Source: Candidatus Micrarchaeia archaeon (GTDB lineage: Archaea; Micrarchaeota; Micrarchaeia; Micrarchaeales; Micrarchaeaceae). From it: a DNA stretch of 42,515 bases. The DNA lies in NCBI GenBank assembly GCA_049964795.1, contig JBMFWY010000007.1, positions 1 through 42,515 on the forward strand, given 5' to 3'. Position numbers and translations under genes: made by a program. Below, in pieces: positions 31,754 through 32,755 of this stretch. Position 1 is the first letter of the stretch, and every line of letters begins with the position of its first letter. The notes beneath the pieces were generated by a model, which saw nothing but the letters and a program-made list of their open reading frames with translations, was not told the DNA's origin and ran no database searches.

Positions 31754-31873
31754 GGCGGGGTAGCTCAGCCTGGTGGAGCGCTAGACTCATATCAAAGAAT
31801 TATGAGTGATGAGCCTAAAAGGCTATGACGAGAAATCTAGAGGCCGTGGGTTCAAACCCCACCCCCGCCACCA
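31754..31873 (+). tRNA. tRNA-Met(CAT), probably elongator, with a 43-nt intron at 37/38 and encoded CCA
   Basis: Exon 1 31754-31791, exon 2 31835-31873; acceptor GGCGGGG/CCCCGCC, anticodon arm CTAGA-CTCATA^A-TCTAG, T arm GTGGG-TTCAAAC-CCCAC. Confidence 0.93.
31792..31834 (+). ncRNA. tRNA intron with box C/D-like K-turn and guide complementary to the spliced anticodon loop
   Basis: Guide ATTATGAGT 31799-31807, D-like ATGA 31809-31812, stem GCCT-AAA-AGGC, C-like ATGACGA 31825-31831. Confidence 0.7.
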
Positions 31874-32528: not shown

Positions 32529-32755
32529 GTGGCAGGCAATAGCCCCCTTTTTGTTTTAGGCAGCATTCGTCTAAGCGGCTTAAAGCCTTGCGTACGCCAT
32601 GCACATCGGCACGTTTCATCCGCACCGGCGCGCTCGTAGTGTCATCGCTTTGTGCGCCGCAGCGGTTTCGTTTCTGATCCGAATACGCCCTTGAGGCGTG
32701 CATGAAAATGGTACGAGGGGAGCTTCCTCCTTTCGGTAAGCTGCCCGCCTGCCAC
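32529..32755 (-). ncRNA. rnpB: RNase P RNA (compact, 227 nt)
   Basis: P1 GTGGCAGGC/GCCTGCCAC; CR-I GAGGAAGCTCCCC; CR-II CAGAAA; CR-III TGAAAC; CR-IV AGACGAAT; CR-V ACAAAAAGGGGGCTA; TATAAA about 25 nt upstream. Confidence 0.92.

Follow-up and report, generated by a model that had tools for sequence, protein, structure and literature searches.

Why should the tRNA-Met gene of an ultra-small archaeon contain an intron that is complementary to the very anticodon loop that it interrupts? The question is raised by positions 31754-31873 of a 42,515-nucleotide stretch of DNA from a Candidatus Micrarchaeia archaeon (contig JBMFWY010000007.1); the whole stretch is called the window below. The intron is probably a minimal guide of the box C/D type with a single kink-turn (K-turn), which would direct the 2'-O-methylation of cytidine 34 (Cm34) in the tRNA-Met that hosts it. 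As part of the same reading, which is drawn from the sequence and its conservation, it would probably belong to a set of intron-borne guides for wobble nucleotides in Micrarchaeota.

The gene was recognised by the Rfam tRNA model, which matches positions 31754-31870 with 58 bits (gathering score 29) and leaves a 45-nucleotide (nt) unaligned insert after CUCAU. With splice sites at the canonical 37/38 position, an intron of 43 nt (31792-31834) results; the homologous introns of the 53 relatives that could be parsed measure 38-53 nt. The gene and its intron are laid out as follows.

31754-31791, plus strand: exon 1 of the elongator tRNA-Met(CAU), from the Rfam tRNA match (58 bits) and the sequence; C32 is 31786, C34 is 31788 and A37 is 31791.
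31792-31834, plus strand: intron of 43 nt at the canonical 37/38 position, the insert in the Rfam alignment.
31792-31798, plus strand: mini hairpin with U31792:A31798, C31793:G31797 and the loop AAA, from the alignment of relatives (alignment A1, below).
31799-31807, plus strand: antisense (guide) element ATTATGAGT; its core ATGAGT (31802-31807) pairs with positions 36-31, with G31804 opposite C34.
31809-31812, plus strand: D-like box ATGA, its G31811 and A31812 being the K-turn's non-bulged strand; relatives differ in its first two bases.
31813-31823, plus strand: capped C-stem of the K-turn (stem I equivalent), GCCT-AAA-AGGC, in which 31813-16 pair with 31820-23 around the loop AAA; it is also present in the fold of the intron alone.
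31824-31831, plus strand: 3-nt bulge TAT (31824-26), then G31827 and A31828 of the C-like box ATGACGA (31825-31831).
31829-31834, plus strand: intron side of a relaxed bulge-helix-bulge, in which CGAG (31829-32) can form the central helix with positions 35-32, and AA (31833-34) with A38 would form the 3' bulge.
31835-31873, plus strand: exon 2 and encoded CCA; A38 is 31835, the discriminator A is 31870 and CCA is 31871-31873.

In archaeal box C/D small RNAs (sRNAs), an antisense element of about 8-12 nt lies directly upstream of box D or D', and the target nucleotide is paired to the fifth base upstream of that box (D-5). The intron has this arrangement. Its element ATTATGAGT is the exact reverse complement of positions 31-39 of the spliced tRNA, with which it can form 9 base pairs (bp); only 7 pairs (31-37) are possible with the precursor. 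On its 3' side follow G31808, the ATGA box, the capped stem, the bulge TAT and the GA inside ATGACGA. G31804 is the fifth base upstream of ATGA, so that C34 stands at D-5 of a 9-bp duplex. Two extra pairs, G31797:C40 and A31796:U41, can be added if one A is bulged, and the pairs to C40 and U41 are Watson-Crick in 48/53 and 48/53 sequences. This extension carries little weight, since the bases concerned are the 3' strand and the last loop base of the mini hairpin.

The K-turn of a C/D RNA consists of tandem sheared G.A pairs between box C (RUGAUGA) and box D (CUGA), a 3-nt bulge and a canonical stem. Archaeal C/D sRNAs also possess an internal C'/D' motif as their second one, which 12-nt spacers separate from boxes C and D. 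In the intron, the K-turn is recognised by its sequence signature, and the box consensus is only partly kept: the D-like box is xxGA and the C-like box is RUGA followed by variable bases. The place where C'/D' would be is occupied by the mini hairpin of 2-3 bp; most relatives have UGC-NNN-GCA here, with one base pair more than in the window. The intron has a single guide and a single K-turn, where guides of the tRNA-Trp type have a pair of guides (for C34 and U39) with complete C/D and C'/D' motifs. In terms of the archaeal C/D family, the intron has the K-turn and the D-5 register and lacks the two-motif organisation. Among 20000 dinucleotide-preserving shuffles of the intron, a complement of at least 9 nt to the anticodon arm arose in 94/20000 and the K-turn-hairpin motif in 251/20000. 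In view of these frequencies, and of a hairpin motif that shows no enrichment genome-wide, the argument depends on conservation and not on the single sequence. The geometry of an antisense element followed by the box was found in no second copy in the genome.

Conservation was followed in 60 relatives and the source genome itself (725 kb, 34 contigs, 91.6% complete), 61 genomes together. A DNA search gave near-full-length matches that cover the intron in 54/61 genomes, which come from three families of one order and share 74-100% identity. These 54 sequences constitute alignment A1, and the elements could be parsed in 53 of them. On the exon 1 side, the antisense element pairs with A31 (A31:U, 54/54), C32 (C32:G, 52/54), U33 (U33:A, 54/54), C34 (C34:G, 54/54), A35 (A35:U, 54/54) and U36 (A or G opposite, 54/54). 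The pairs across the junction are A37:U in 36/54, A38:U in 42/54 and U39:A in 43/54; in the parsed set, U is found opposite A37 and A38 in 35/53 and 40/53, and there is one compensatory case, G37:C. It had been proposed in an earlier reading made from the sequence alone (the sequence-only reading) that the guide acts only after splicing. This part of the proposal finds no support, as the invariant core of positions 31-36 lies wholly in exon 1 and the pairs to A37, A38 and U39 are present in only a part of the alignment.

The bases of the intron that are invariant or nearly so in alignment A1 are TGA and T of the antisense element, GAGC, GC of the returning strand and TGA, and the flanking intron bases vary. 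The first GA, of the D-like box, is invariant (54/54), as is the second GA in the 53 parsed sequences, and the spacing antisense-NNN-GA is constant in all. The three-base stretch that precedes the first GA occurs in 15 forms in 53 sequences, and variation is also seen in the loop and in the bases that follow the second GA. All bulges (53/53) are N-R-U (TAT 23, GAT 19, TGT 6, AAT 5). The capped stem has G:C in 53/54 and C:G in 53/54, and its third pair covaries (AU 22, CG 14, UA 3, UG 3, unpaired 11). Covariation is also found at the closing pair of the mini hairpin (UA 42, AU 3, GC 3), the third pair of which is CG in 51 and UA in 1. Where the closing pair covaries, the pair to U39 is lost; the A opposite U39 is therefore held by the mini hairpin, not by U39. 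The sequence-only reading had described the 43-nt intron, its 9-bp and 7-bp pairing with the two-pair extension, the K-turn geometry and C34 at D-5, and all of these were recovered at the same coordinates. Antisense element, K-turn and the register of C34 are conserved over this order-level group and beyond, and the expected conservation of guide and boxes in related introns was borne out, in the form of conservation in the antisense element and covariation in the hairpins.

Across the phylum, a strict motif made up of the loop, the antisense element and GAGC was found in 198/401 sampled genomes, with 0 for the reversed control in the rows listed. The count takes in the unpublished genomes G074 and G209, without which it is 196/399. 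The strict motif also occurs in 7/201 genomes of Aenigmatarchaeota. A scan of 185,579 species genomes was made, and among the 120 matches listed at least 73 were parsed as tRNA-Met with the full architecture, some of them with longer introns; the other listed matches are chance, mostly bacterial, or variants rejected in parsing. A named strain with a complete genome, Ca. Micrarchaeum sp. A_DKE, carries the intron. At two loci, L082 (in genome G405) and L177, the anticodon arm, the K-turn intron and the 3' half are tRNA-Met-like. The part upstream of the anticodon stem is not tRNA-like there and the region after the T-stem looks interrupted; these may be split, permuted or multi-intron tRNA-Met genes.

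The introns of two further tRNA families place nucleotide 34 in the same register. In the source genome, the introns of tRNA-Ser(UGA) and tRNA-Ser(CGA), at the loci C14:10402-10522 and C25:97-221 (minus strand), read antisense-CTGA-NNN-RTGATGC, which is a canonical D'/C' K-loop, and the Ser introns among the relatives likewise have a single K-loop (CTGA-N3-6-RTGATGC). In 28/30 Ser introns of relatives, the base at D'-5 (fifth upstream of CTGA) is paired with nucleotide 34. The guide base follows the anticodon: it is A with UGA in 25 and G with CGA in 3, and a mismatch is found in 2 (n = 30). The Ser(CGA) intron of the source genome also matches its anticodon. Two Ser(CGA) genes (L224, L225) retain the A of the UGA type. 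The tRNA-Trp(CCA) gene (C3:56948-57087) has an intron of 67 nt, in which a D-like TTGA is followed by a capped GC stem, a C box, a 12-nt spacer with the antisense to C34, a D' box ATGA, a linker and a C'-like box. C34 is paired at D'-5 in 24/24 parsed Trp introns, 6/30 being unparsed, and the D' box of the 24 ends in GA (14), AA (9) or otherwise (1). The order of boxes is permuted with respect to the textbook C...D'...C'...D, the C'-like box being placed at the intron's 3' end; the 30 relatives show no conservation of the 5' part, in which a D guide would be expected. The Ser and Trp introns are kept across the order, with a match in 60/61 and 56/61 genomes, and an Rfam search at the Trp and Ser loci gave nothing meaningful.

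By eye, the Thr (two), Phe (two), Tyr and Ile introns of the source genome contain no antisense element with a K-motif. The antisense element is thus not a general requirement of splicing. The same register of nucleotide 34 in three tRNA families, with different types of boxes, is what would be predicted of a methylation guide and not of a mere folding element. A strict two-motif pattern for stand-alone canonical C/D sRNAs matched 0 times in the genome and 0 times after shuffling, the pattern being narrow and the genome 91.6% complete, and CTGA-N3-7-RTGATG was found 10 times genome-wide compared with 7-15 times in shuffled sequence, which is no enrichment. The recognisable guides of this genome all lie inside tRNA introns.

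The proposed mechanism would begin with the binding of L7Ae to the K-turn made of the D-like xxGA, the loop-capped stem I and the C-like NRUGA, on which Nop5 and fibrillarin would then assemble. The 6-9 nt of antisense directly upstream of the D-like box would pair with positions 31-36(39) of tRNA-Met, and fibrillarin would methylate the 2'-OH of C34, the base paired to the fifth nucleotide upstream of the box. The guide may act on the precursor of which it is part (in cis) or on other precursors (in trans), or it may work on the spliced tRNA after its own excision, perhaps as a circle. A second target in trans could be the initiator tRNA-Met, whose 7-nt loop is identical.

The genes for fibrillarin and a Nop5 homologue, which the sequence-only reading took as indispensable, are present, and so is that for L7Ae. 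Fibrillarin scores 266 bits (cut-off 113) and L7Ae is distinguishable from L30e. A 55-amino acid (aa) N-terminal extension of fibrillarin was rejected as an artefact of open reading frame (ORF) calling, its relatives measuring 217-233 aa. For the Nop5 homologue (C9:32613-33554, about 300 aa), the alignment begins at residue 112 of PDB 3id5_A and at position 116 of NCBIfam NF011121, and the score is below the cut-off of NF011121. The short form is found in 40/41 relatives and in the best 120 database relatives, with 278-500 aa and only PF01798 annotated. No match to Pfam NOP5NT was found in the genome, which is an uninformative blank since the control stayed below the cut-off in every archaeal control genome, and no separate ORF for the N-terminal domain was found beside fibrillarin, the one neighbourhood checked. 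The genes for Nop5 and fibrillarin are not adjacent. A complex model of Nop5 with fibrillarin reached a score of 0.73 (best of 3 controls, 0.01), with runs that agree in at least 64% of contacts and a partner pLDDT of at least 90, a mark that is reached by 58/80 solved complexes and 2/110 mismatched pairs. In this model fibrillarin sits on residues 5-23 of Nop5, within its first 23 residues. The model supports binding between the two proteins, although solved archaeal complexes exist and the pass may reflect likeness to these and not this pair.

The canonical splice motif of archaea, hBHBh', has a 4-bp central helix, two 3-nt bulges and the outer helices h and h'. In the window, 3 Watson-Crick pairs and A35.C make up the central helix, AA and A on the two sides of the splice site would be the 3' bulge, and there is no clear h', with the bulges placed by this general motif. 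Across alignment A1, the base opposite position 32 is G in 54/54, opposite 33 A or G in 53/54, opposite 34 G in 36/54 and opposite 35 U in 23/54, and each of the 53 parsed sequences has 3-4 of the 4 pairs. An outer helix h' (GC/GC) is present in the order's second family, where intron bases 2-3 are paired with an inserted GC; 23 and 16 sequences have letters at the two columns, and all are paired. Positions 32-35 pair either with 31803-31806, in the guide, or with 31829-31832, in the splice motif. Guiding and splicing must be alternative conformations, because both helices use exon bases 32-35: the guide lies in the intron of the pre-tRNA that it would target and, once paired, leaves no room for the splice motif. 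When the precursor is folded, the minimum-free-energy structure has the 7-bp antisense helix and not the cloverleaf anticodon stem with the splice motif.

A number of observations speak against a methylation guide. Within the 43 nt there is no second GA/GA motif, which leaves C'/D' absent and the K-turn single. The boxes are deviant, as the first two bases of the D box are free and the C-like box retains only RUGA. The conserved duplex between guide and target is short, at 6-9 bp in 51/53 (contiguous over 6 bp in 16/53, 7 bp in 8/53, 8 bp in 4/53 and 9 bp in 23/53, and broken near its start in 2/53). The exon side is unable to covary, and the antisense element therefore offers conservation and not covariation. 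A loose form of the K-turn-hairpin motif is not enriched genome-wide, with 61 matches and 71-85 in 5 shuffles. A search with Rfam around the locus, at E up to 10, returned only the tRNA and RNase P families, and no C/D family that matches the intron. Judged from the alignments above, the Nop5 of this lineage lacks the N-terminal, fibrillarin-binding domain. Lastly, single-box ribonucleoproteins (RNPs) of M. jannaschii were active in vitro and not site-specific, both motifs being needed, according to passages of PMC1635284.

The single K-turn and the Nop5 without its N-terminal domain would suit another explanation as well, in which K-turn and antisense form a folding or quality-control device for the precursor and guide no methylation. 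In one variant, the binding of L7Ae and the masking of the anticodon loop would order the steps of processing, for example by keeping the precursor non-spliceable until other steps are done. In another, the two elements would help a broad-specificity endonuclease to find the relaxed bulge-helix-bulge motif. Such a device is favoured by the competition of the antisense and splice helices for positions 32-35, by the 7-bp antisense helix in the minimum-free-energy fold of the precursor and by the relaxed splice motif of the window (3/4 central pairs), and passages of PMC3239211 describe ARMAN-type endonucleases as accepting relaxed motifs. What it leaves unexplained is why three tRNA families, with a K-turn in Met and K-loops in Ser and Trp, keep C34 in an exact and unvarying D-5 register; besides, other introns of the same genome are (by eye) spliced without such an element, and the Ser introns have canonical CUGA and RUGAUGC boxes. 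A device of this kind is considered unlikely. That the resemblance to a guide is coincidental, the intron being kept because it is young or constrained by splicing and having no function of its own, is hardly credible. The motif alone is weak, its K-turn hairpin is not enriched in the genome, and 94/20000 shuffles contain a complement of at least 9 nt. Yet it is precisely the bases on which K-turn and pairing depend that do not change over 54 genomes of three families, while their neighbours vary freely, both hairpins covary, and the phylum-wide count of 198/401 genomes compares with 0 for the reversed control in the rows listed.

The excised intron might also be mainly a trans-acting small RNA with the intron-less initiator tRNA-Met as its chief substrate, for which residence in the elongator gene would be a route of expression. 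The initiator has the identical loop CUCAUAA, with which 7 Watson-Crick pairs and one G:U are possible, and a role on it would explain the U opposite A37 and A38 (35/53 and 40/53), although A38 is distant in the elongator precursor. Passages of PMC7668247 report that the initiator tRNA-Met carries Cm34 in M. maripaludis and P. furiosus, and according to PMC3326292, as far as its text was drawn on, excised archaeal tRNA introns circularise, some of them being stable. However, the bases opposite A37 and A38 are not strictly conserved, and the complementarity to the host is at least as good, with A31:U where the initiator would have G31:U and with U39:A in 43/54. The initiator as chief substrate appears improbable; such a role is compatible with a guide for Cm34 of the host and does not exclude it.

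The tRNA of the window, with its CAU anticodon, is an elongator tRNA-Met, because the genome has a separate initiator-type tRNA-Met (C2:22212-22287, minus strand; A1 and three G:C pairs closing the anticodon stem) and a tRNA-Ile(UAU) gene (C2:59884-59958), and TiaS_FLD was not found; AUA is probably decoded otherwise. The search with TiaS_FLD, which gave no match in the genome (91.6% complete), was positive in 4/4 archaeal control genomes, and no third CAU tRNA was found in the genome at the same completeness. The sequence-only reading had suggested that the methylation might keep this tRNA distinct from an agmatidine-modified tRNA-Ile2. With tRNA-Ile(UAU) present and neither TiaS nor a third CAU tRNA found, this idea is not supported for the present genome. 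AUA is probably decoded without agmatidine here, as follows from the tRNA-Ile(UAU) gene and the missing TiaS_FLD match, in likeness to Nanoarchaeum.

ARAGORN missed the tRNA-Met gene in its default mode and, when introns were allowed, called it 'tRNA-Ser (aga) i(35,43)'; it also mis-assigned several other intron-containing tRNAs of the genome. The automatic annotation of such genomes may therefore be without tRNA-Met. The genome-encoded 3' CCA (31871-31873) is also found in the closest relative (L006) and is absent from most other relatives. An archaeal RNase P RNA is encoded at 32529-32755 of the window on the minus strand (Rfam RF00373, 95.2 bits, gathering score 84); it is 227 nt long, where the model has 288 positions, and is found on the strand opposite to the tRNA-Met gene, 660 nt downstream of it.

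If the intron is indeed a guide for Cm34, it would be, to our knowledge, the smallest natural guide of the box C/D type described, and would stand, as a natural case, against the in-vitro rule by which site specificity requires both C/D and C'/D'. The retention of the tRNA-Met, tRNA-Ser and tRNA-Trp introns in ultra-small archaea would be tied to the 2'-O-methylation of the wobble nucleotide. A wider proposal is put forward more tentatively: Micrarchaeota and some other DPANN archaea might run wobble-ribose methylation by way of natural 'half-mer' guides of about 40 nt, each with a single K-turn or K-loop, which reside in Met, Ser and Trp introns and work with a Nop5 that has no N-terminal domain. 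Should this be true, guide function would explain why such introns persist in extremely reduced genomes, site-specific guiding would be achieved without a bipartite architecture, and the excised intron might serve the initiator tRNA-Met in trans. The lineage also offers a pointer to an unusual Nop5 without the fibrillarin-binding domain.

Among the closest known systems is the intron of archaeal tRNA-Trp, which guides Cm34 and Um39; in Haloferax pre-tRNA-Trp, the guiding and splicing conformations are mutually exclusive (both from passages of PMC7994747 and PMC2584109). Like the Trp intron guide of Haloferax volcanii and Pyrococcus (sR50), the intron of the window sits at 37/38 of the tRNA that it would target, addresses the wobble C34 by the D/D'-5 rule and has guiding and splicing exclusive of one another. 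The Trp guide uses L7Ae, Nop5 and fibrillarin, whereas here the genes are encoded and their use would follow by analogy. The Trp intron has 65-105 nt, C/D and C'/D' motifs and two guides (C34, U39), compared with 43 nt, one K-turn and one guide here. Unlike in the Trp guide, the order is D-like box, capped stem and C-like box, the guide is 5' of the whole motif, and the host is tRNA-Met.

The target itself is familiar from guides that act in trans. Cm34 of the intron-containing elongator tRNA-Met is guided by an sRNA in Haloferax and predicted to be so in Pyrococcus (sR49), from a non-intronic gene, as described in parts of PMC2584109. The intron would share the target nucleotide and the chemistry with these guides and with human SNORD97/SCARNA97 (PMC2584109 and PMC6601510, in the passages that concern them). 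The trans guides, as far as these sources describe them, are separate genes with the full two-motif architecture, whereas the present element is intronic, with no second copy found in the genome. The synthetic 'hemi' C/D RNPs of Hardin and Batey (2006, PMC1635284) are similar in having one K-turn and one guide. According to passages of that paper, such single-site RNPs assemble and methylate in vitro, with site specificity lost. The exact D-5 register of the natural intron, unlike those RNPs, would imply that specificity is reached by another route.

A literature search, made in the running text of papers, gave no description of a single-K-turn guide in a tRNA-Met intron, of intron guides in Micrarchaeota or of guides in tRNA-Ser introns. 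In the available text of the paper on the ARMAN endonuclease (PMC3239211), 'box C', 'methylation', 'tRNAMet' and 'tRNATrp' do not occur, and that of a Thermoplasma paper (PMC4307237) has 0 occurrences of 'Cm34' and 'guide'. The finding is not categorically new, as a C/D RNA in the tRNA-Met intron of a DPANN archaeon is already in print in PMC3491384 (Randau 2012), in line with the expectation of the sequence-only reading that other intronic cases may be published. According to passages of that paper, the elongator tRNA-Met of Nanoarchaeum equitans has an intron of 66 nt that contains a box D, a box C close to the consensus and a GC hairpin (PMC3491384). The intron RNA was described as stable and abundant by RNA-seq, and was proposed to be a C/D methylation guide (PMC3491384). 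The two introns have in common, by that description, the elongator Met host in a DPANN archaeon, a box D with a C-like box, and the GC hairpin. They differ in length (43 vs 66 nt), and no target is named in those passages, the comparison being by description only. Beyond what is described there, the present analysis provides conservation in hundreds of genomes, the D-5 register of C34 and the parallel cases of tRNA-Ser and tRNA-Trp, by which the single report from Nanoarchaeum is extended to a conserved, testable family with hundreds of members.

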